Positions 4,775 through 63,526 are shown, counted from the first letter of the stretch. The stretch is 64,000 bases of DNA from an uncultured Brachyspira sp. (GCA_964454835.1 CAYVTU010000001.1:102836-166835), one strand, 5' to 3'. Notes: generated by a model from the sequence alone, not told the origin. Numbers and translations are program-made.

Positions 4775-5476
4775 ATGAAAAAAAATAATAATGGATTATT
4801 TGTTATATTTGAAGGGTTAGATAAGACAGGTAAGACAACTCAACTCAATTTAGTTAAAGATGAATTTTTTAAAAATAATTTAAAAAATATTGTTACAACT
4901 TATGAACCTGGTGATTCAGTCATAGGTGAAAAAATAAGACCAATTTTGTTGAATGCCAATTTAAATCTTTCAAATTTGACAGAGTTTTTTCTATTTATTT
5001 CAGATAGATTAGAGCATTCTATTCAGTTTATATTAAAAAAACTTGAAGAAGGAAATGTTGTAATTGTCGATAGATTTCACTTTTCTACATTTTCATATCA
5101 GGTTTTTCCAGCAATAATGAAAATAAAAAAGAAAGAATACAAAGATAAGCAGGAATTATTCTTATTGAAAACTTTAATAAAAATGGATAAAATATTTGGA
5201 AACTATCTTTTTTCATTTATCCAACCTGATTTAATATTCTACTTTCATAATAATTCTTATTTTATTGATAAAAAACATAGCAAAAAGATAATACTTGAAA
5301 AAAATGATAGATTCGAGTCAAGAGGAGATATTTATTTAAAAAATGTAATAAAAGGTTATGAAAAAAGCTTTGAATATTATAGAAATTTTAATAAAATTCT
5401 CTATAAAATACCATTTTCTAATGGAATTGAGAAAAATAAAAAAATAATTTTTAATAAAATTTTAGAAAATTTGTAA
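4775..5476 (+). CDS. tmk: Thymidylate kinase (divergent, extended C-terminal half)
   Basis: N-terminal P-loop IVFEGLDKTGKTTQ and DRF motif of dTMP kinase. Sits in the tmk–yaaR–yaaT order conserved in many bacteria. Confidence 0.7.
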   Translation: MKKNNNGLFVIFEGLDKTGKTTQLNLVKDEFFKNNLKNIVTTYEPGDSVIGEKIRPILLNANLNLSNLTEFFLFISDRLEHSIQFILKKLEEGNVVIVDRFHFSTFSYQVFPAIMKIKKKEYKDKQELFLLKTLIKMDKIFGNYLFSFIQPDLIFYFHNNSYFIDKKHSKKIILEKNDRFESRGDIYLKNVIKGYEKSFEYYRNFNKILYKIPFSNGIEKNKKIIFNKILENL

Positions 5477-5530
5477 TTTTCTTAATAATAAAATTTGATA
5501 ATATAATTAAAAAAAAATAAGGAATACTGG

Positions 5531-6004
5531 ATGATTCCATCTATTTATAATATTCTTCAAAAGTTTTCTCCAAAAGATCAAAAAAAAAGTGGCAAATTAG
5601 AAAAAGCGGGTTTATCGAAGAAGGGTGAAAAAAATTTTGAGCAAATAATATTTGAAAAGAGAATAGAAGATCTGGTTTTAGAATATGAAAACCTTGAACC
5701 AGAAATCCTTATAACAAAGATAGATGAAGTTGGAAAAAACTATAAAAGGACAAGGAAAAATGAAGATCTAGAAAATTATAAAGAGCTCCTTGCTTCATTC
5801 ATTATCCTTGTTGAGAGAAAGGCATATAAAATTAAGATTATAAATAAGAAAAATTATTTACTCGATGAAGATGAACTGGATTACATAATTGTTGAAATTG
5901 AAAAAAGACTCTTAGCTTTGCTTGAAAGTTTTTTAATATCTCAAAAAGAGATTTTAAATATTATTGATGAATTAGAAGGACTAATATTTAAAATTTCTGT
6001 TTAA
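5531..6004 (+). CDS. YaaR/DUF327-family protein
   Basis: C-terminus LLALLESFLISQKEILNIIDELEGLIFKI resembles the YaaR C-terminal signature. Located between tmk and the PSP1 gene. Confidence 0.45.
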   Translation: MIPSIYNILQKFSPKDQKKSGKLEKAGLSKKGEKNFEQIIFEKRIEDLVLEYENLEPEILITKIDEVGKNYKRTRKNEDLENYKELLASFIILVERKAYKIKIINKKNYLLDEDELDYIIVEIEKRLLALLESFLISQKEILNIIDELEGLIFKISV

Positions 6005-6030
6005 TAATAAATTTTTAATAAAGGATTTTT

Positions 6031-7086
6031 ATGTATCTATATCGTTGTAGATTGTTATATTCTAAATCAATAATGGATTTTTATTCAACAGGATTATATA
6101 ATCTTACTAATTTGACAATTGTTAAAGTTGAGACAAAGCATGGAGTGGATCTTGCAATTTATCTTAATAAAACTACAAATATCGATGATAAGGAATTTGA
6201 TGAAATCATGAAATTACAGGCAACAAGTGCAGAAGAAAGCATCGATACAATAGAAAGTTCTCAGGAATATTTGAATGGAAATGGATTAAATGGAAATAAT
6301 ATTAATTTTGAAAATATAAGTGACTCAATAAATATAAGCTCAAACCAAACAACAAGCCTTGAAAAAAGTTCTAAAAAGAAACAAATGAAAATTGAGGGTA
6401 AATTTATTGGCGTTGCAACTTCTGAAGATTTAAAAATTTACAAAGAAAATGAAGAAAAAGCAAAAGAAGCCTTTAATGTTTTTAAGGAAGAAATAAAGGA
6501 ATGCAAACTTGAGCATGAGATGAAACCAATTGGAACACACTATTATTTAGATGGGATGAAAATTTTATTTGATTTTGTTGCAGACCATAGAATAGATTTT
6601 AGAGAGCTAGTAAAAAAACTAGCAGCTCGATATAGAAAGAGAATCGAACTTCATCAAATAGGCGTTAGAGATGAAGCAAGAATGATAGATGGACTTTTTA
6701 TATGTGGGCAGCAGCTTTGTTGCAGGAGATTTTTACATCAGCTAACCCCTATTTCTATAAAAATGGCAGAAGTACAGAATGCTCCTTTAAATACAATGAA
6801 AATTTCAGGGTATTGTGGAAGACTTTTATGTTGCCTTGCCTATGAAGCTGAACAATACGAAAAAGCAAAAGAAAATCTACCCGAGCTTGGCTCAACTCTT
6901 ATTTATAATAATGAAAAATACATAGTTTCAGAGGTCAATGTAATAAAACAATACTTAAAACTGAAAAAAAAAGATAGTTTAGAATATGTTCTTTTAAAAA
7001 ACGAAACATTAGTTTTTGATAAAGATATCGAAGGAAATAAATTATTATCAAAGGCAGAAATTTATACACCAGTAAATAAAAAATAA
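6031..7086 (+). CDS. PSP1 C-terminal domain protein (YaaT/RicT-like) with low-complexity Asn/Ser-rich insert
   Basis: Cys-containing PSP1 core: LFICGQQLCCRRFL ... GYCGRLLCCLAYE. Confidence 0.75.
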   Translation: MYLYRCRLLYSKSIMDFYSTGLYNLTNLTIVKVETKHGVDLAIYLNKTTNIDDKEFDEIMKLQATSAEESIDTIESSQEYLNGNGLNGNNINFENISDSINISSNQTTSLEKSSKKKQMKIEGKFIGVATSEDLKIYKENEEKAKEAFNVFKEEIKECKLEHEMKPIGTHYYLDGMKILFDFVADHRIDFRELVKKLAARYRKRIELHQIGVRDEARMIDGLFICGQQLCCRRFLHQLTPISIKMAEVQNAPLNTMKISGYCGRLLCCLAYEAEQYEKAKENLPELGSTLIYNNEKYIVSEVNVIKQYLKLKKKDSLEYVLLKNETLVFDKDIEGNKLLSKAEIYTPVNKK

Positions 7087-20551: not shown

Positions 20552-20620
20552 GGCTATAATGTAATAGAAATAAGAGAATTTGTCAAATTTATGAAATTCT
20601 TTGACATTTGTTAAGAAAAA

Positions 20621-20693
20621 TCGGAAAGAGGAGATTTGAACTCCTGACCCCCTGGTCCCGAACCAGGTGCGCTGCCAACTGCGCTACTTTCCG
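20621..20693 (-). tRNA. tRNA-Pro (anticodon CGG)
   Basis: Cloverleaf folds by hand: acceptor CGGAAAG/CTTTCCG with the C1-G72 pair typical of tRNA-Pro, D-stem GCGC/GCGC, anticodon stem CCTGG/CCAGG, loop TTCGGGA, T-loop TTCAAAT, discriminator A. CCA not encoded. Confidence 0.85.
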
Positions 20694-20765
20694 ACATTAA
20701 ATTTTTTATAAGTCTACTTTTTAATAGAAAATATATAAAAAAATTATCAAATTAAGTATATTAAA

Positions 20766-22745
20766 CTAAGATTTATCGGTAAGTTGTTTAATTTTATCTC
20801 TAAGAACAGCGGCTTCTTCAAATTCCCATTTTTTTGCGGCTTGCATCATCTGATTTGTAAGGATTTTAATAAGTTTTTCCTTTTCCTTTGGATTTAGTGG
20901 ATTATATTTCTTTATTAAAAATTCGTAGGCAAGGTTTGTTCCATCTTCTTTCGATTTTTCTTCCCTTTCTATAAAGGTTTTTACCTCTTTTTTAATGCTA
21001 ACTGGAACAATATTATGAGTTTTATTAAATTCAATCTGTAATTGTCTTCTTTTTCGAGTTATTTCGATTGCCTGTTTCATAGAATCAGAAATCTGATCTG
21101 CATACATAATTATTGTACCATTGACATTTCTTGCAGCACGCCCCATCATCTGAATTAAAGATCTTTCAGAACGTAAAAATCCTACTTTATCGGCATCTAA
21201 AATTGCGACAAGGGTAACTTCTGGCAAATCCAATCCTTCTCTTAAAAGATTAATACCAACAAGAATTTTGCAATCACCTTTTCTGAATTTTGTTATAATA
21301 TCTATTCTATCGAGAGAATCAATTTCAGAATGAAGATATAAAGCGGGATATTTTTGTTTTTCTAAATAATCTGCAAGATCTTCTGCATTTTTCTTAGTGA
21401 GAACAAGAACTAGTATCCTTTCATCATTTATTAGCCTTTTATCAATTTCGCCAATTAAGTCTTTTACCTGATTTTCAGCAGGTCTAACTATTATTTCGGG
21501 GTCAAGCAGTCCTGTTGGTCTTATCCACTGCTCAACTACAACACTACTTTTTAGTTCATATTCAGCCGGTGTTGCACTGACAAATAAAACCTTCTTAAAA
21601 TAATTTTCAACCTCGTTAAATTTTAATGGTCTGTGGTCATAGGCAGAAGGAAGTCTAAAACCATAATCAATAAGCGATTTTTTTCTGGATAAATCTCCTC
21701 CATACATTGCATGAAGTTGTGGGATCGTAACATGAGACTCATCAATTACGATAAGATAATCTTTTGGGAAGTAATCTAGTAGTGTAGCAGGAGGCTGACC
21801 TGGCAATCTTCCACTAAAATGTCTGCTATAATTTTCTATGCCTTTTACAAAGCCAAGTTCGTTGATCATAGTAATATCATAACTTGTTCTTGAAAGAAGT
21901 CTTTCTGCTTCAAGGTTTTTACCCAATTCCTTTAATTCTTTATATCTTTCATTCAATTCATGCTCTATGGATATTAATGCTCTTTTCCTTTCTTCAAGAT
22001 TTGTGACAAAATGCTTTGCGGGATATATGGTAAATTGTTCAACTTCTGAAATAACATCAGTAGTTATTGGATGAATTAAGATTAATTTTTCGATTATATC
22101 ATCAAAAAAAATTATTCTTAATGCATGCTCGGTGTAAGCTGGGAAAATATCTACTATGTCGCCTTTAATTCTAAATTTACCAGGGGTGAACTCAATATCT
22201 GATCTTTCGTAGAAAATAGAAACCAGAAGCATGGTAAGTTGTTCTGTTGAAATTTTTTGATTTAAGGTTAATGGTATTCTTTGATTTTTATATTCATCTG
22301 GGTTACCTATTCCATAGATACAACTTACCGTTGCAATTACTATCGTATCATTTCTTGATAAAAGAGCCTCTGTCGCTTTTAATCTTAATCTTTCTATTTC
22401 TTCGTTAATATCGGAGTCTTTTTCTATATATAAATCTCTCGTTGGAAGATATGCTTCTGGTTGGTAGTAATCAAAATATGATACAAAATACTCTACTGCA
22501 TTTTCAGGGAAAAATGATTTTAATTCACTATATAGCTGTCCAGCAAGTGTTTTATTATGAGAAATAACTAGAGTAGGTAATTGAAGTTGTTCTATTATAT
22601 GTGCTACTGTATAAGTTTTACCTGAACCTGTTACACCATAAAGAGTTACCCTTTCTTTGTTAGAATTGAAGGCATTAACTATTTTTTTTATTGCCTCTGG
22701 TTGGTCGCCTGCGGGAGCAAAATTTGAATGCAATTTGAATTTCAT
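20766..22745 (-). CDS. uvrB: Excinuclease ABC subunit B
   Basis: Full-length UvrB: N-terminal helicase motifs, GVTGSGKT Walker A, C-terminal UVR coiled-coil. Confidence 0.95.
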   Translation of the reverse strand: MKFKLHSNFAPAGDQPEAIKKIVNAFNSNKERVTLYGVTGSGKTYTVAHIIEQLQLPTLVISHNKTLAGQLYSELKSFFPENAVEYFVSYFDYYQPEAYLPTRDLYIEKDSDINEEIERLRLKATEALLSRNDTIVIATVSCIYGIGNPDEYKNQRIPLTLNQKISTEQLTMLLVSIFYERSDIEFTPGKFRIKGDIVDIFPAYTEHALRIIFFDDIIEKLILIHPITTDVISEVEQFTIYPAKHFVTNLEERKRALISIEHELNERYKELKELGKNLEAERLLSRTSYDITMINELGFVKGIENYSRHFSGRLPGQPPATLLDYFPKDYLIVIDESHVTIPQLHAMYGGDLSRKKSLIDYGFRLPSAYDHRPLKFNEVENYFKKVLFVSATPAEYELKSSVVVEQWIRPTGLLDPEIIVRPAENQVKDLIGEIDKRLINDERILVLVLTKKNAEDLADYLEKQKYPALYLHSEIDSLDRIDIITKFRKGDCKILVGINLLREGLDLPEVTLVAILDADKVGFLRSERSLIQMMGRAARNVNGTIIMYADQISDSMKQAIEITRKRRQLQIEFNKTHNIVPVSIKKEVKTFIEREEKSKEDGTNLAYEFLIKKYNPLNPKEKEKLIKILTNQMMQAAKKWEFEEAAVLRDKIKQLTDKS

Positions 22746-56231: not shown

Positions 56232-56663
56232 AAAAATTTAATATTTTTTTGCTTTATCTAAATATATATTAAATGTCAAATGTTATTAAAATATGTTAAG
56301 TATCAGAAATTTTTATTTGAAACTTTACCTTTTACTTTCAATGGTTTTTAAAAAATATACTGAATTTTCATTTAAGATTAAGGTACATTTTTTTTTTTAT
56401 TAAAAATTTCCAATTTTTGAAAGGAGAAAAAAATAAAAAAAAAGTAAAATTATTTTATAAAAAGCTTTTATAGGGAAAAAGTCTGACAAACATTATAAAT
56501 AAAGGAGTTTTAAGATGTATTTTTGTTTGTAAAATCTTTTTTTATAAAAAAAAAATGTAAAAAATTGAAAAAAATATTTAAAAAATACTTGACAAACAGA
56601 TTTTATAACTTATGAAGTAACTATAGAGGTTATGAAATATAGAAAAAAAAGGAAGGAGAGATT

Positions 56664-56966: not shown

Positions 56967-56999
56967 AGCTGTCCATAAAAAATGGACAGCTCTTTTTTT
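56967..56999 (+). terminator. Rho-independent terminator after hup. It overlaps the lexA stop codon on the opposite strand
   Basis: AGCTGTCCAT-aaaaa-ATGGACAGCT 10-bp stem followed by TTTTTTT. Confidence 0.8.
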
Positions 57000-57612
57000 A
57001 TTCTAGATATCTTTGAACTCCGACAACTACTCCAAGACACTTAAAAGTCTCTGGACTTACTATAAGATCAGAAAACATTATGTTTTCAGGATGTAAAATT
57101 ATCATATGATGGTTATAATCATAGAAAAGTCTTTTTAGTGTTACATCTCCATCTATTAAAGCGACAACAATATCTCCATCTTTTGCCAATTCAGTTTTTT
57201 TGACTATCACATAATCTTGATCAAAAATTCCAGCTTCTTTCATCGAATCACCACGAACTATAAGGGCAAAATATTCTCCATCGGAAAATCTTCTCTTATC
57301 TATGACAATTTCTCCTTTTATATCTTCAATTGCTTCAATTGGTTTACCTGCTGCTGTGGTACCATAAATAGGTATTTTTCGTTGATTTATTTCTGATATG
57401 GCTTTATCAGTCAAAAGTAAGCATCGAGCCATTCTTTTTTCTTTAATTATATAACCTTTATTTGCCAGTCTATCTAAAAATTCATGTGCTGTTTTTAAGT
57501 TTATTGAAAAAGTTTCAGCAATCTCGGTAAGTGAAGGTGGATATTGATTTGTTTCAATATATTTTGCTATAAAATCAAGAACTTGCTTTTGTCTTTTAGT
57601 TATTTGTTCCAA
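56998..57612 (-). CDS. lexA: LexA repressor (S24 peptidase)
   Basis: N-terminal wHTH TKRQKQVLDFI; cleavage/catalytic region ALIVRGDSM (Ser) and VALIDGDVTLKRL (Lys). TTG start preceded by AAGGGGG. Confidence 0.9.
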   Translation of the reverse strand: MEQITKRQKQVLDFIAKYIETNQYPPSLTEIAETFSINLKTAHEFLDRLANKGYIIKEKRMARCLLLTDKAISEINQRKIPIYGTTAAGKPIEAIEDIKGEIVIDKRRFSDGEYFALIVRGDSMKEAGIFDQDYVIVKKTELAKDGDIVVALIDGDVTLKRLFYDYNHHMIILHPENIMFSDLIVSPETFKCLGVVVGVQRYLE

Positions 57613-60600
57613 AGTTCCCCCTTTTTAATCTTTCGAAAAAATCAGGTAAGAATAAGTTTAATTCGGTTAATAAAAAAGAATTTGATGTGTTTTGCTGAAT
57701 TTCCAGTGAAATCTCAAAAAAATTATAGTATTTTAATAGATTATAATAATTTGAATAAACATCTGGAAATAAAGTCGTTTCAATAAAGGAATTTCCATCA
57801 AAAAAAGTTGCAAATCCCATCAATTTTCCATTTTTCGTGGCAGTACTTCGATATATTATAAGCCAACCCAATTTTTTTATCTTATTGTTATCATAAATTT
57901 TTTGAGTTCTGTAATTTTCAATAATATTTATCTCGGAATCATTTAAATAGCCCGATTCCAGCATTTGTTGCAAAATCTCAAATGGATGTGTAGTAACAAA
58001 CAATCCAAAATACTTGTATCTATAATAGTATAAATTGAAGATATTTTCTGTAAAGTAAATTTTTAATTTTGTAAATTCTTTTTCTTTTAAGATTAAATTG
58101 TTTAAAGTACGGTTTTTTTCAAGAAACAAAGTTTCACATAAAATTTTTGCAAAAAATATTGATTTATAAAATTTTAAAAAATAACCAACTTCAATAAGTT
58201 TAATAATTTTATTTTTATCTAAATTTGAAAAAGCTATAAATTTGGCCATTATATATTCTTTTTCACTATTAAAACTATGAGATATAGAAATAAGTAAATC
58301 TTTTTCATTTTCACTTAAAAAAAAGAAGTTTACTAAACCAATTATTATTTTACTACCATTAAAAGTAGTTTGCTTCTGAGGATTTAATAAATCACAAATA
58401 TCTAGAGTAATCCCTTCTTGAATAGCAAGTATATTGTAGGCCAATGAAGGGTAATATCCACCGAAATTATTGAGTAAAGCGGCATAAAAATAAGGGGTAA
58501 AATGAGTTCTTATATAAGCAAGTTTTACTGACAATACAGCATAAGATGCAGAATGAGCTTTGCAAAAAGCATATCCTGCGAAAGACTCTATTTGAGACCA
58601 GATTTTTTCTAGACTTTGAGCAGAAAATTTTTGTGAAATACCTCCATTTATGAATTTTTCTTTCAATTTTATTATTTCAGATTTACTTCTACTTTTACCA
58701 CTCATGGCTTTTCTAAGTAAATCAGCTTCCGATAAAGATAATTTTCCAACTGCACTTGCAACTTTTAAAACATCCTCTTGATATATCATTATTCCAAAAG
58801 TTTCTTTTAAAACCTCTTTTAATAAAGGTATTTCATAGCTAGCTTTTTTTGAACCTGTTTTTCTTAAAATATACTCATCTTTCATACCAGAATCTGAAAC
58901 TCCCGGACGAATAACCGAGGAAGCAGCAACAAGTTCTAAAAAATTGCTTACATGCAAATCTTTCAGTAGATTTACCATTGCAGCAGATTCAATATAAAAA
59001 CAACCACGACAATCACCATTTCGAATCTTTTCCCATGTTTTTTTATCATTATTAGCAGTTTCAAAATCAATTTTAAGATTAATATTAAGAATTTTATTTA
59101 TATTTTCAATTGAATCTTGCAAGACCTGTAATGCTCGTTGAGAAAGTATATCTATCTTAATAAGACCAGATTTTTCAATATAGTTTAAATCAAAATGAGA
59201 TATTGGTACTCCCTTTGTTGCAAAAAGATATGGGGTAGAACTAAAAATATCGGGTGCTGAAAGAACTATTCCACCCGGGTGGACACCCTTTGCAAAGGGG
59301 AGATTTAATAATTTTATTGTCATACTAATAATATTTTCAGGCAATCCAAGTTCAGAAAGGATTGATAATATTTTATTTTTATCTTTTGTATAAAAAAGTG
59401 AAGGTATAAGTTTTGAATATTTTGTAATTGCTTTTGAATCCATTCCATAAAATTTGGCACTATTTCTAAATGCTCCTTTCAAATTCATTTTTAATGTTGT
59501 TGAGACCATGCAACAATTTAAGGGATATTTATTAAGTACATACAGAATAATATTATCTCTTTCTTTCCATGAAAAATCTATATCAATATCGGGAAAAGAT
59601 TGCCTTTGAGGATTTAAAAATCTTTCGAAATAAAGGTTTAAGTTTATTGGATCAACTTCTGTGATATCAAGAAGATAAGAGACTAAAGACGAGGCAGCAG
59701 AGCCTCTTCCTATATATATTATGCCATTTTTTTTTGCATAGCAGATAATTTCATATACAAATAAAAAATATTGCGAAAAGTCTTTTTTTGAAATAATATT
59801 CAATTCATATTCCAATCTTGAAATATAAGAAGGATTGTTGTCTAGTTTTTTCTTTTTTAATTTAGAAAAACAAATATTTCTTAGTAAAATATCAGCATTA
59901 TCATAAAACATTGGGAAAATGGATTTTTTTTCTTTTATTTCATTAAACATAGATGGGAATTTCTTAAGATTTTCAATTGATTGAAATATTTTAAGCCTAA
60001 TAGATTCTGGTAAAATATGATATGGATTCATAGTTTCTTTTATGAATTTGCTATCTTCTGTTAAATTATAATATTTACATATAGATGTGAATTTTTCAGT
60101 GAGTGGTTTTCTTTTTTTATAAATATTATCATTTTTAGAAGATTTTCTTTTTATTAATTCATTAAATCTACATGTGAAAAGAATATCAATAAACTCGTTA
60201 TCCAGTGGTTTCGAATAAAATATCTTAGAAAGAAAAATTGGATTTGGAAAATCGAAATTTTCAAAGAATCTAATTAATGAAGGCACAAGAAAAGGTTTAT
60301 TGGAAAAAATATCTTCAATAAGACCAAAATATAAGCTTTTTTCTGGTATTGACAGTTGTTTTAATATATTGTAAACACCTGTTGTTAAAGATATGAAGAT
60401 AATATCTTCGAGTTCATTTCTTATAGATAATCGAGAAATTGTATCATATATCTCGGTAAAAGATTTTTTATTGGTGGAGCTACTTATTATTGAATTGAAA
60501 GAGTGAAAACCCTCAGCTGATTTCAAAAAAAGTAAAAATCCTCCATTACTATAAATCTGATTTTTTAATTTTGGAGCAATATGAACTCCTACTATTGGGA

Positions 60601-60769
60601 AAATACTTTTTTGCTTTGCTAAATTGATAAATTCCCACATGCCATATATATTGTTTTTATCTGTTATAGCAGCATATTTTTGGTTAATTTCAGATATTTC
60701 ATCTATGTATTTTTCTATAGATAGATTACTTTCATAGAAAGAATATGATGTATGAACAAAAAGTTGCAT
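57596..60769 (-). CDS. DnaE-family DNA polymerase III alpha-like protein with degenerate PHP domain; probable error-prone DnaE2/ImuC
   Basis: Polymerase active site PDIDIDF. The PHP N-terminus FVHTSYSFYES has lost the His ligands of the canonical HxHxHS. 1057 aa; 17-bp overlap with lexA. Confidence 0.75.
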   Translation of the reverse strand: MQLFVHTSYSFYESNLSIEKYIDEISEINQKYAAITDKNNIYGMWEFINLAKQKSIFPIVGVHIAPKLKNQIYSNGGFLLFLKSAEGFHSFNSIISSSTNKKSFTEIYDTISRLSIRNELEDIIFISLTTGVYNILKQLSIPEKSLYFGLIEDIFSNKPFLVPSLIRFFENFDFPNPIFLSKIFYSKPLDNEFIDILFTCRFNELIKRKSSKNDNIYKKRKPLTEKFTSICKYYNLTEDSKFIKETMNPYHILPESIRLKIFQSIENLKKFPSMFNEIKEKKSIFPMFYDNADILLRNICFSKLKKKKLDNNPSYISRLEYELNIISKKDFSQYFLFVYEIICYAKKNGIIYIGRGSAASSLVSYLLDITEVDPINLNLYFERFLNPQRQSFPDIDIDFSWKERDNIILYVLNKYPLNCCMVSTTLKMNLKGAFRNSAKFYGMDSKAITKYSKLIPSLFYTKDKNKILSILSELGLPENIISMTIKLLNLPFAKGVHPGGIVLSAPDIFSSTPYLFATKGVPISHFDLNYIEKSGLIKIDILSQRALQVLQDSIENINKILNINLKIDFETANNDKKTWEKIRNGDCRGCFYIESAAMVNLLKDLHVSNFLELVAASSVIRPGVSDSGMKDEYILRKTGSKKASYEIPLLKEVLKETFGIMIYQEDVLKVASAVGKLSLSEADLLRKAMSGKSRSKSEIIKLKEKFINGGISQKFSAQSLEKIWSQIESFAGYAFCKAHSASYAVLSVKLAYIRTHFTPYFYAALLNNFGGYYPSLAYNILAIQEGITLDICDLLNPQKQTTFNGSKIIIGLVNFFFLSENEKDLLISISHSFNSEKEYIMAKFIAFSNLDKNKIIKLIEVGYFLKFYKSIFFAKILCETLFLEKNRTLNNLILKEKEFTKLKIYFTENIFNLYYYRYKYFGLFVTTHPFEILQQMLESGYLNDSEINIIENYRTQKIYDNNKIKKLGWLIIYRSTATKNGKLMGFATFFDGNSFIETTLFPDVYSNYYNLLKYYNFFEISLEIQQNTSNSFLLTELNLFLPDFFERLKRGNFGTNN

Positions 60770-60772
60770 ATA

Positions 60773-62026
60773 TTAACCCGCCAGATGAATTTTTTCATCC
60801 CCAAATTTTTGAATAAGATTATCGAAAAGGTTTAGTAATTTTTCATCAAAATCTTTATCATAATCGTTAAAAAGTGCTTCACATGAAGTTTTATCAAATT
60901 CAAGTATAATTGAAGATATAGCCGACTTCCCTTTTAGTTTTATTACAATGTCTTGAGCTATTGAGTATAAAAAGGAAAGAATATTATGATTATCATAGAA
61001 TAGATTAAATTTATCAAGAAACTGATTGGTATATTCAACTATTACAGAAATTTGAGGAGATTTAGACTTTATCCAATAATTTTTAAAAAAAAATGATTCT
61101 AGATATAACTTTTCCCTTATTTTAGTGTAGATTAAATCTTTATTATTGGTCGGTGGAGAGAATGTTAAAACAATTTCATAAGTAGAATTATGATTTTTAC
61201 CAAATAATTTTTTGATAAGAGAGAAAATAAAAATATCAAGAGCTTCCTTTTTTATGCTTGATTGGAAAATGGCTGTTAATGGCTTTAATCTATTGGCAAG
61301 TTTAATGCGCAAAGAAAGCGGCGAAGACAAAATTGCTAAGTTTAAAAGTTTATCTTGAAAATCAAGAGGAATTTTAGCAAAGTCAGAAAACCAGAAAATG
61401 CCGCTTTCTTCACAAAATTTAAGGGGGGAGAGAATATTGGATAAGTTTATAAAATTAAAAAACTGATTTGAATTAAAAAATGTAAAATAAGTATTTTTAT
61501 TGGGATTAATATTTAATCCTGTTGGTACAAATAGAGAAAAAGAAAATGAATTAGATGTAAAAAAAGATAGATAAAGTTTTCTATCGATTTTCAGCAAAGA
61601 TTTAAATATAGAATCAAGAAATACAAATATTGGCTTATAAACCAACTGGCAGCCGGAAAAATCTGCAATCAATGAAAAAGAATCAAAGGAAAGTGAATTA
61701 GTGGTAAAAAAGGGAATGTCATATACTTCGAAGGCATAATTTTTCAGTTCATTAATAAGTATTTTTTTAAAATTGTCCTTTTCTTTTATAAAATCATTAC
61801 AAGGAAGCAAGAAGAAATTATCTGTTATTTTTTTTACAAAGTTTATCGATAAACCAGGTTTTATTCCATAATAAGATAAAGACTTTGAACAAGAATATAC
61901 AAACTTGTTATCCTGGTTTTCATAAAAAAGCAATATGTCATTTCTTTTATGTTTTTTCTCAGCTAAAGATAGAGAAAAAGAAGGATTGTAAATGTTTGTA
62001 AAAATAGGAAAACTTTTATATCTCAT
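60773..62026 (-). CDS. ImuB-like Y-family polymerase homologue, catalytically inactive
   Basis: N-terminal pattern ILLFYEN...VYSCSKSLSYYGIKPGLS parallels UmuC/ImuB (A.AR..GV.PGM) but lacks the DxD/E catalytic acids. Start placed at the ATG at 62026; the track's TTG at 62092 would encode the promoter region as protein. Confidence 0.55.
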   Translation of the reverse strand: MRYKSFPIFTNIYNPSFSLSLAEKKHKRNDILLFYENQDNKFVYSCSKSLSYYGIKPGLSINFVKKITDNFFLLPCNDFIKEKDNFKKILINELKNYAFEVYDIPFFTTNSLSFDSFSLIADFSGCQLVYKPIFVFLDSIFKSLLKIDRKLYLSFFTSNSFSFSLFVPTGLNINPNKNTYFTFFNSNQFFNFINLSNILSPLKFCEESGIFWFSDFAKIPLDFQDKLLNLAILSSPLSLRIKLANRLKPLTAIFQSSIKKEALDIFIFSLIKKLFGKNHNSTYEIVLTFSPPTNNKDLIYTKIREKLYLESFFFKNYWIKSKSPQISVIVEYTNQFLDKFNLFYDNHNILSFLYSIAQDIVIKLKGKSAISSIILEFDKTSCEALFNDYDKDFDEKLLNLFDNLIQKFGDEKIHLAG

Positions 62027-62039
62027 ATTCTCTAAAATT

Positions 62040-62068
62040 AGTATAACCCAAAATATTTTGGGTGTCAA
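62040..62068 (-). promoter_or_regulatory. Sigma70 promoter of the imuB–dnaE2–lexA operon with embedded 16-bp perfect palindrome (candidate LexA operator)
   Basis: Minus strand reads TTGACA-cccaaaatattttgggt-TATACT: consensus -35, 17-bp spacer, near-consensus -10. Spacer contains CCCAAAATATTTTGGG (62047..62062). ATG lies 13 nt downstream of the -10. Confidence 0.6.
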
Positions 62069-62121
62069 TAGAAAAATGATAAAAAGTTGCAAAAAATTTC
62101 CCCTGGTATATATGGACAGTA

Positions 62122-62415
62122 ATGATAGTACTATTTGGTTATATAGAACTTCATATTGAAGAAGCTAAATCTCTTAAAGACAGAAGAAGCGTTGTTCATT
62201 CAATAATTTCATCTTTAAGAAATAGATTCAATGTATCTGTTTCAGAATTAATTGTAGAAGATTTTCATTTTGCTAAAATTGGTATTTCTGCTATAACAAC
62301 TAAAAGAGCATTATCCAATACAATGAAGGAAAATATTATTAATTTCATAGAAACTTATTATCCTGGCAGAGTATGTGATTATCTTTTTCAGGTAGAAGAT
62401 GTTGGTGTTGTTTAA
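62122..62415 (+). CDS. DUF503 (YlxP-like) protein
   Basis: IELHIEEAKSLKDRRSVVHSIISSLRNRFNVSVSEL closely parallels B. subtilis YlxP (IELHLPG.HSLKEKRSVVKSLIERLRSRFNVSVAE). Confidence 0.75.
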   Translation: MIVLFGYIELHIEEAKSLKDRRSVVHSIISSLRNRFNVSVSELIVEDFHFAKIGISAITTKRALSNTMKENIINFIETYYPGRVCDYLFQVEDVGVV

Positions 62416-62425
62416 ATAAATAAAG

Positions 62426-63526
62426 TTGAAATTGAAAGATATGCAAATTCCATATAAAATCGGTAAATATTTGGCAAAAAAATTTATTTTCCCTTTCCTC
62501 GTGATTTCAATTCTTGTCATATTTTTATATATAATGCAAGAGTTTATATTCAACATTAATAAATATTTGAAGATGGATTTAAAATCACTTGTTAACTATT
62601 TTATATTTTGGTCTCCATATATATATTTTCAAATGTTTGGTGTTGCAATGTTGTTTAGTACAATATATGTCATTTCATCATTGAATAATACTTCTGAATT
62701 ACTCGCAATTCATACCAATGGAGTTTCAACTTTTTCAATGTCATTAATATTAATAATTCTAATTTTTTTCATAAGTATATTCATCATTTTTACTCAAGAT
62801 TATTTTGTAATTGATAATTATAAAAAGAAGGTTGAGATTGAAAAAAAATATTTTCCAAAGGAAGTTATAAAAGATAATTATAATATATCACTTGTGGGTA
62901 CAAAAGGTTATATTTATTATGTTAATCAATATATAGATAGAGAAAAAGAATTAGTTGAAGTAAGAATAATTCAATATTCTAAGAGTATTGGAATAAAAAC
63001 TGAGATTATAGCAAAGCATGCAAAATATGTTTCAAAAGGGAAATGGTTGCTTTATGATGTATATGAATATAAGTATGATTTAAAAAATCAAGAAATACTT
63101 AAATCATATTATGATGAAAAAACATACGTTTTATATGATGAACCAGAATTATTTGAAAGAGCCATTTATGATATGGAACTATTGCATATTAAAGAAGGAT
63201 GGCAAATAATTAGGTTGATGAGAAAATACAAGATCTATAACTATATTGAAGAATTTAATTTTTGGGCAAAATTTGTTTTTCCAATTTCCGGATTATTGAT
63301 TTCTCTTTTTGGAATTGCGGCGGGTTCTTTTTTTAGAAAAAATACCCTGATTATGGGTTTAATTACATGCATTGTGGTATATGGTTCTTATTATTTTATT
63401 ATCAGTACCTTATATATTTTAGGCAAAAGAGGTGTAGGTAATGCTTTTCTTTCTTCTTTATTGGGACCTATAATATTTTTAGTACTTGGAATATTTTCCT
63501 TAATTAAGGTAGATAAAATATATTAA
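62426..63526 (+). CDS. LptF/LptG-family (YjgP/YjgQ) permease
   Basis: N-terminus IGKYLAKKFIFPFLVISILV and SELLAIHTNGVS match LptF/G motifs (ILDRYIGKEF...; SELTAMRAAGIS). TM – periplasmic beta-jellyroll – 3 TM topology. Confidence 0.7.
   Translation: MKLKDMQIPYKIGKYLAKKFIFPFLVISILVIFLYIMQEFIFNINKYLKMDLKSLVNYFIFWSPYIYFQMFGVAMLFSTIYVISSLNNTSELLAIHTNGVSTFSMSLILIILIFFISIFIIFTQDYFVIDNYKKKVEIEKKYFPKEVIKDNYNISLVGTKGYIYYVNQYIDREKELVEVRIIQYSKSIGIKTEIIAKHAKYVSKGKWLLYDVYEYKYDLKNQEILKSYYDEKTYVLYDEPELFERAIYDMELLHIKEGWQIIRLMRKYKIYNYIEEFNFWAKFVFPISGLLISLFGIAAGSFFRKNTLIMGLITCIVVYGSYYFIISTLYILGKRGVGNAFLSSLLGPIIFLVLGIFSLIKVDKIY

Follow-up and report, generated by a model that had tools for sequence, protein, structure and literature searches.

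The stretch of DNA analyzed here, 64,000 nucleotides deposited as uncultured Brachyspira sp. (GCA_964454835.1 CAYVTU010000001.1:102836-166835) and called the window below, carries on its minus strand three tightly packed genes whose predicted products are, in order, an inactive homolog of Y-family DNA polymerases (iPolY), a DnaE2-type C-family polymerase, and the repressor LexA. Judging from the sequence, we consider it probable that these genes form an operon for translesion synthesis (mutagenesis) in an Exilispira-like spirochaete, induced by DNA damage and autoregulated by LexA. An earlier sequence-only reading of this DNA had seen in it the ImuA-ImuB-DnaE2 mutasome logic, with lexA at the end. 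Fold, profiles, diagnostic residues, phylogeny, synteny, and a palindrome in the promoter bear out an SOS-type cassette, though not a true ImuA-ImuB-DnaE2 one, since it has neither ImuA nor the ImuB-C domain. The features of the locus are:

56967..56991, G+C-rich hairpin between lexA and the convergent HU gene, a likely bidirectional terminator
56998..57612, minus strand, lexA, 204 aa (TIGR00498 and Pfam)
57596..60769, minus strand, gene for the DnaE2-type polymerase, 1057 aa (Pfam domains, catalytic residues, neighbor-joining tree)
60773..62026, minus strand, gene for iPolY, the predicted inactive, ImuB-like Y-family homolog, 417 aa (Foldseek, hhalign, MAFFT)
62040..62045, minus strand, -10 hexamer TATACT (promoter-like site scan)
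62047..62062, perfect 16-bp palindrome CCCAAAATATTTTGGG within the spacer of the promoter, putative LexA operator (SOS box)
62063..62068, minus strand, -35 hexamer TTGACA of the operon promoter (promoter-like site scan)

Inspection of the reading frames and junctions confirmed the earlier description of three co-directional minus-strand genes: 3 nt separate the iPolY stop from the dnaE2 start, and dnaE2 and lexA overlap by 17 nt. These junctions leave no space in the cassette for a RecA-like ImuA/ImuA' gene, and no ImuA gene was found in the window flanks of the cassette or in the flanks of its relatives, which agrees with the absence of ImuA noted from the sequence alone. At the downstream end, the hairpin lies 6 nt past the lexA stop and is common to the convergent HU gene; the T-run that follows its stem is poor on the lexA strand (TCTTTAAG). 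Transcription of the operon would probably terminate there.

Promoter and candidate operator

The best sigma-70-like site between positions 56500 and 62400, and the one strong promoter of the operon, is TTGACA-17 nt-TATACT at 62068..62040, with 11 of 12 matches. The leader is very short, the -10 hexamer being 13 nt from the ATG at 62026. Of the 17 spacer bases, 16 are taken up by the palindrome CCCAAAATATTTTGGG, which occurs only once in the window. Autoregulated SOS operators classically take this form, a palindrome placed between the -35 and -10 hexamers of an operon that contains lexA.

The arrangement is conserved. The pattern TTGAC(A/G)-CC(C)A-W8-TGG(G)-TAxxxT stands 5' of the first gene in all ten loci fetched from relatives (some of which are copies of the same contig); the -35 hexamer is kept in all 10 relatives' loci that cover the promoter, one of them reading TTGACG. 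The same layout is found in two distant loci (L002 and L011) where the upstream genes differ. The CC(C)A-W8-TGG(G) palindrome is absent from the non-spirochaete DnaE2 loci. A second CCA-W8-TGG match lies inside the dnaE2 gene of locus L008; it is neither palindromic nor conserved and was taken as a chance occurrence.

The conserved promoter palindrome thus points to LexA autoregulation, with the palindrome as the predicted LexA binding site. Three points weigh against this prediction. First, it draws only on the position and conservation of the palindrome. Second, CCCAAAATATTTTGGG is not the sequence of the LexA1 box of Leptospira, CTnnACnnnnGTnnAG, a site of 16 nt as well. Third, there is no candidate operator near uvrB in the window, so that the regulon may be small. 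If the prediction is right, CCCA-N8-TGGG is a candidate SOS box for this lineage and can be used to map the regulon.

Conservation of the operon in spirochaetes

Close relatives of all three genes come from metagenome-assembled genomes (MAGs) labelled Exilispira sp. and from two MAGs labelled Brachyspira, which marks the source of the window as an Exilispira-like spirochaete. Wherever a locus extends over the cassette, its genes stand in the order iPolY-DnaE2-LexA. Nine loci have all three genes, seven of them Exilispira-type (from GTDB genomes and from JGI and ENA metagenomes) and two from a second spirochaete lineage (L002 and L011); the tenth, L007, ends inside the first gene. The last position of lexA, which the sequence-only reading had singled out as unusual, is fixed in all nine loci, in two spirochaete lineages.

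Among Exilispira-type loci, identity to the window proteins is 75-89% for LexA, 62-69% for DnaE2, and 52-63% for iPolY; the polymerase thus evolves faster than the repressor. In L002 and L011 identity to the window falls to 35% for DnaE2 and 46% for LexA, and the first protein can no longer be aligned by BLAST. This protein (372-382 aa) nevertheless matches the little-finger and C-terminal part of a Y-family polymerase (PolY) profile (E=0.0011). In the Exilispira clade lexA overlaps dnaE2, whereas in L002 and L011 it lies 30-70 nt downstream. The genes that flank the cassette differ between the two lineages, and its gene order, which recurs in both, is more than chance.

Two of the Exilispira-type cassettes are in contigs that carry other names, 'Brachyspira murdochii' (L006, DYJT01000006.1) and 'uncultured Brachyspira sp.' (L008, CAZOPR010000002.1). 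Their flanks either agree with those of the JGI contig L001 or show synteny with the window, and the Brachyspira names look like mislabels of Exilispira-like genomes. It is also of note that in L011 a 121-aa open reading frame (ORF) with no Pfam match (6180-6545, plus strand) lies directly 3' of lexA; neither L002 nor the Exilispira-type loci have it.

LexA

By its sequence the product of the last gene is a bona fide LexA. It scores 178.7 bits against TIGR00498 (cut-off 110.95) over residues 1-202 of 204 and carries the LexA_DNA_bind and Peptidase_S24 domains of Pfam. An Ala88-Gly89 pair, Ser123, and Lys160 can be read in the sequence, and we take these to correspond to A84-G85, S119, and K156 of the E. 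coli protein. The earlier proposal that lexA starts with a TTG codon 17 nt inside the polymerase gene is upheld by its context. A Shine-Dalgarno sequence, AAGGGGG, stands 4 nt upstream, inside dnaE2, and relatives have ATG at the position of the TTG, which makes both the start and translational coupling to dnaE2 credible; LexA profiles, too, align from residue 1.

Is this LexA the global SOS regulator of its host? It could instead be a second repressor dedicated to its own operon, like LexA2 of Pseudomonas or Leptospira, the global regulator being encoded elsewhere or absent. We regard this as possible but the less likely case. In its favor, the palindrome occurs once in 64 kb and not upstream of uvrB, a classic SOS gene; the cassette has its own promoter and candidate operator in the different genomic contexts of the two spirochaete lineages; and horizontally acquired lexA2 genes whose activity is restricted to their own island have been described in the literature. 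Yet the protein is a full-length, equivalog-level LexA and the most conserved of the three, and 64 kb is a small sample in which to count operators.

A different role for the protein is suggested by its S24 domain, which matches the UmuD profile NF007621 with E=9e-19. LexA, or the C-terminal S24 fragment left by its cleavage, might double as a UmuD'-like structural subunit of the polymerase complex. Such a role would account for the co-translation of lexA with dnaE2 and for the lack of ImuA and ImuB-C, and it fits with the coupling of the two genes in the Exilispira clade, with their fixed order in all loci, and with the absence of any other accessory gene from the cassette. We nonetheless think it improbable: the score of 67.6 bits is far under the UmuD cut-off of 110, the 30-70 nt between dnaE2 and lexA in L002 and L011 mean that coupling is not universal, and membership of the LexA family already accounts fully for the gene. 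The two ideas can be combined into a self-contained minimal mutasome in which LexA, after self-cleavage, would supply an S24 fragment as a UmuD'-like third subunit while serving as a dedicated repressor with a lineage-specific operator found essentially only here. Such a system would explain both the invariant last position of lexA and its translational coupling; we give it equally little credence.

The DnaE2-type polymerase

The 1057-aa product of the second gene has the PHP, DNA_pol3_alpha, and finger domains of Pfam. As the sequence-only reading had it, this is a DnaE-family polymerase with an intact PDIDIDF motif and a degraded PHP metal site. Asp394 and Asp396 (in PDIDIDF) and Asp540 align with the catalytic residues D401, D403, and D555 of E. 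coli DnaE. In the PHP domain, QxFxH stands in place of the HxHxH motif and Lys in place of the His of the TDH motif. The protein ends 33 residues after a segment that aligns weakly with the E. coli oligonucleotide-binding (OB) domain, where the E. coli protein continues for 106 residues; it therefore has no tau-binding C-terminal domain.

Is it an accessory polymerase or the replicative alpha subunit? NCBIfam scores did not help to decide. The protein scores 502 bits against the DnaE1 model NF004226 (cut-off 1002) and 356 against the DnaE2 model (cut-off 939), and so reaches no DnaE equivalog cut-off. Genuine PolY-linked DnaE2B proteins show the same pattern, favoring the DnaE1 model while missing every cut-off, and a comparison of the two scores was rejected as a classifier. 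Relatives are more informative. Outside the spirochaete clade, the best matches among 5.8 billion clustered proteins are DnaE homologs of 970-1060 aa, and all three whose neighborhood was checked are encoded directly downstream of a Y-family gene. In a neighbor-joining tree (576 polymerase-core columns, 200 bootstraps) the spirochaete clade (100%) is sister to the PolY-linked DnaE2B proteins of Bacteroidetes with 88% bootstrap, and the DnaE1 proteins of E. coli and Thermus group elsewhere (96%). The tree, which has long branches, contains these two DnaE1 references and no DnaE2A or DnaE2X proteins.

Two points weigh against this assignment: identity over the polymerase core is 35% to E. coli DnaE1, as high as the 31-36% to DnaE2B proteins, and DnaE1 is represented in the tree by only two sequences. 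They could be used, together with the intact catalytic triad, the higher score of the DnaE1 model, and the lack of a second dnaE or a polC gene within the 64-kb window, to argue that the protein is Pol III's replicative alpha subunit and its linkage to lexA incidental. The cluster names of the long DnaE matches include no Exilispira DnaE1. We consider a replicative role very unlikely, and the suggestion of the sequence-only reading that the gene might encode the only alpha subunit found no support. An essential replicase is not expected to evolve faster than LexA, as this protein does. Its gene is behind a promoter that bears a candidate LexA operator, beside a gene for a seemingly dead Y-family protein. 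Its DnaE1 score is half the cut-off and its DnaE1-over-DnaE2 pattern is shared by genuine PolY-linked DnaE2B proteins; the tree places it with DnaE2B; and it lacks both a functional-looking PHP site and the tau-binding domain. A published survey adds that in DnaE2 proteins the PHP site is degenerate, that these proteins occur alongside a DnaE1, and that DnaE1 or DnaE3 was present in every species examined (PMC12926913). Everything testable thus points to a DnaE2-type C-family polymerase with an accessory role.

The NCBI names of its relatives (P0004, P0019, and members of the P0018 cluster) are 'PHP domain-containing protein' or 'hypothetical protein', with one 'DNA polymerase III subunit alpha', so that annotation, too, speaks against a recognized replicase. 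Relatives of the Y-family protein are called 'hypothetical protein'. Because the relatives of both proteins carry such generic names, automated annotation misses the mutasome.

The spirochaete DnaE2 clade has a further peculiarity. HHH_6 (PF14579) goes undetected in it, as does an OB-fold (residues ~770-920 of the window protein; Pfam domains of P0011-P0019), whereas nearly all other matched DnaE proteins have HHH_6. In published models the DnaE2 region containing HHH_6 and OB contacts the thumb of ImuB, and the divergence of the ~770-920 region may have co-evolved with the very divergent iPolY.

The first gene

The first gene had been read as starting with a TTG at 62092. Its actual start is the ATG at 62026, 66 nt downstream, and the TTG lies upstream of the promoter. 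Most of ten aligned homologs begin at the Met equivalent to this ATG, and the 22 codons between the two positions are missing in most relatives and run through the conserved promoter; we therefore place the gene at 60773..62026. The family is small, with about a dozen sequences in public data.

What kind of protein is it? The earlier claim of a UmuC/ImuB-like protein is sustained by comparisons of fold, profiles, and alignments, while being weak by sequence alone. An AlphaFold model was built on the ten-sequence alignment and compared with the Protein Data Bank (PDB) using Foldseek, which gave 75 matches at E<=1e-3 (best E=5.4e-8). All 50 matches listed are Y-family polymerases (Dpo4, Dbh, DinB, MsDpo4, Rev1), with probabilities of 0.97-1.00. 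In hhalign the family aligns with a profile of 23 bona fide PolYs over 310 colinear columns (E=0.0068), a better result than with one Bacteroidetes PolY (32 columns, E=0.028). A joint MAFFT alignment pairs the PolY motif SYEAR-GV-GM with CSKS-SYYGIKPG and the motif SLD(D/E)AY-D-TG with SFDSFSLIADFSG, and also recovers the KP motif and a C-terminal LF...(R/K)FG segment. The Pfam IMS domain is matched by seven of the ten family members at E<=1 (best E=0.0019).

The alignment also shows what has happened to the active site. In all ten family members the two N-terminal catalytic Asp residues are replaced by Tyr and Pro, and the Glu by Ser; the Asp equivalent to Dpo4 D105 is retained and invariant. 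Three of the four conserved acidic residues are thus lost, so that the claim of no catalytic acidic residues at all goes one residue too far. On this alignment and the modelled fold, the protein is best described as a catalytically dead homolog of Y-family polymerases.

Several results weigh against its membership of the Y family, which draws on fold and on weak profile-profile evidence. The structural model is of low confidence (pLDDT 58), and the hhalign probability against the PolY profile is only 5.6%. The match of the window protein itself to IMS (residues 37-119) is below the gathering threshold at 13.8 bits (cut-off 23.2; E=0.056), and the family profile finds only spurious septin matches among PDB sequences (E>0.08). 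Separately, a RecA-NT motif was sought with hhalign against E. coli RecA and with a motif hidden Markov model (HMM), and both searches were negative; binding of RecA by this protein would be expected only by analogy with its family.

Could the first gene then encode an unrelated lineage-specific protein with a spurious resemblance to PolYs? No Pfam or NCBIfam model scores above threshold, and the family HMM retrieved from 1.84 billion representatives three sequences, all of its own family, with no bridge to the Y family; together with the low-confidence model these results could be so explained, but the uniform Foldseek matches, the independent IMS matches of seven family members, the colinear hhalign and MAFFT alignments with their Y-family motifs, and the position directly 5' of dnaE2, which is the rule in relatives, make such a coincidence highly improbable.

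The C-terminus is instructive in another respect. The window protein ends ...KFGDEKIHLAG, which in the alignment falls on the FG motif at the C-terminus of PolYs, and the family consensus KLLxLFDxLxxKFGxxKIHLAG aligns with the PolY C-terminal motif. DUF4113 (Pfam) matches weakly at the correct C-terminal position (E=0.33). Nothing follows K-F-G...L-A-G, and the protein therefore has no ImuB-C domain. Nor does the cassette contain a standalone small ORF that could supply one. In published work the ImuB-C domain is retained in even the most reduced ImuB structures.

A still shorter partner may exist elsewhere. Ahead of the closest non-spirochaete DnaE2 (P0020) is encoded a protein of 166 aa (L009, 1689-2189, plus strand) that has IMS_C (little-finger) only and may be a drastically reduced PolY partner.

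Genomic setting

The window has a G+C content of about 26% and otherwise contains ordinary chromosomal housekeeping genes: uvrB, scpA/scpB, cmk, tmk, fumarase, spermidine synthase, and ABC/efflux genes. The cassette has DUF503 and LptFG genes at one flank and HU and radical SAM genes at the other. Back-to-back with the operon promoter is a second conserved promoter-like element, TTGCAA-16 nt-TATATG (62087-62114, plus strand), which sits 7 nt 5' of a divergent gene for DUF503 (62122..62415), itself followed by a gene for an LptF/LptG-family permease (62426..63526). The stretches TTTTTGCAACTTTTAT and GGTATATATGG are kept in the Exilispira-type loci.

The uvrB gene (20766-22745, minus strand), with tRNA-Pro(CGG) at 20620-20694, lies just 28 nt downstream of the co-directional ORF before it and may have no promoter of its own. 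Further off (4775-7086, plus strand) DUF327 and PSP1 genes come after a tmk-like ORF of 233 aa, whose match to the thymidylate kinase profile is confined to positions 1-100 of 185. In Firmicutes the tmk/DUF327/PSP1 neighborhood also holds holB, encoding the delta' subunit of Pol III. No holB gene was recognized in this neighborhood of the window (4775-7086).

Proposed mechanism and significance

We propose the following model. In an undamaged cell, a LexA dimer on the 16-bp palindrome between the -35 and -10 hexamers would block RNA polymerase. Upon DNA damage, RecA filaments on single-stranded DNA would stimulate LexA, which has both the Ala-Gly site and the Ser/Lys dyad, to cleave itself, and a single transcript of all three genes would be made. 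The dead Y-family protein would most likely act as a scaffold or adaptor, as is thought for ImuB and other inactive PolYs, and the DnaE2-type polymerase, judging from its family, would carry out error-prone synthesis. Because neither ImuA nor ImuB-C is encoded, cellular RecA may fill the role of third subunit, as in the published DnaE2B-iPolY-RecA modules. With lexA last and translationally coupled, new repressor would be made in step with the polymerase, closing the mutagenic window once activation by RecA ceases.

If this model is correct, the operon extends the family of ImuA-less PolY-DnaE2 modules to an Exilispira-like, low-GC spirochaete lineage. The coupled, lexA-last layout would also be a case from nature in which a repressor is produced at a constant ratio to the error-prone polymerase under its control.

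Comparison with known systems

The E. coli umuDC operon (Pol V) is SOS-repressed, as we predict for the window operon, and likewise has an S24-family protein co-transcribed with a Y-family protein. The C-terminus of UmuC (QLNLFDD...LNAKEGRGTLYFAG) presumably resembles the C-terminal LF...K-F-G...L-A-G of the window PolY. In Pol V, however, the active polymerase is the Y-family member and UmuD lacks a DNA-binding domain, whereas here the Y-family protein is apparently dead, the polymerase is of the C family, and LexA is complete.

The ImuA-ImuB-DnaE2 mutasome (ImuABC) of Mycobacterium, Caulobacter, Pseudomonas, and Myxococcus follows the logic proposed for the window cassette, a dead Y-family protein and a second DnaE-type polymerase under LexA control for damage-induced mutagenesis. 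The window cassette differs in having neither a RecA-like ImuA nor the ImuB-C beta-barrel. Furthermore, in Pseudomonas-type ImuABC cassettes lexA comes first, whereas in the window it comes last.

Nearest in the tree among DnaE2 clades is the PolY2-DnaE2B pair of Bacteroidetes (for example, of Cellulophaga and Sphingobacterium), whose genes can be as tightly coupled (in L003 the PolY stop overlaps the DnaE2 start). Unlike the window protein, the Bacteroidetes PolY keeps the catalytic D, D, and DE residues, and the Sphingobacterium locus examined has no lexA.

PolY-dnaE2 operons without imuA 'often, but not universally' include lexA (Timinskas & Venclovas 2019, PMC6511836), and RecA has been proposed to replace ImuA in them by way of a RecA-NT motif on the PolY (PMC6511836). 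A 2026 survey defined DnaE2B-iPolY-RecA modules (Timinskas et al. 2026, PMC12926913), of which Streptomyces coelicolor DinB2-DnaE2 and the DinB2-like group of Geobacter bemidjiensis are examples. In these, as in the window, an inactive PolY is encoded directly 5' of a PHP-degenerate DnaE2, imuA and ImuB-C are absent, and lexA is often in the operon; on our limited tree the window DnaE2 is sister to Bacteroidetes DnaE2B. The differences are that the window PolY is too divergent for any sequence profile to recognize, that the module-defining RecA-NT motif is not demonstrated in it, that the helix-hairpin-helix (HhH) and OB domains of the window DnaE2 are undetected by Pfam, and that the window lexA is last and overlaps dnaE2. 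The host, too, is different: it belongs to a spirochaete lineage, and the main texts of PMC6511836 and PMC12926913 mention no spirochaetes.

From its sequence, then, the operon appears to match the ImuA-less inactive-PolY-DnaE2 class (PMC6511836, PMC12926913) better than it does the ImuABC cassettes. Both the general logic and ImuA's absence have been described in the literature before, and nothing in it is overturned. What is new here is a strongly diverged spirochaete version of the module, with lexA fixed in last place and with a candidate SOS box that is likewise new.

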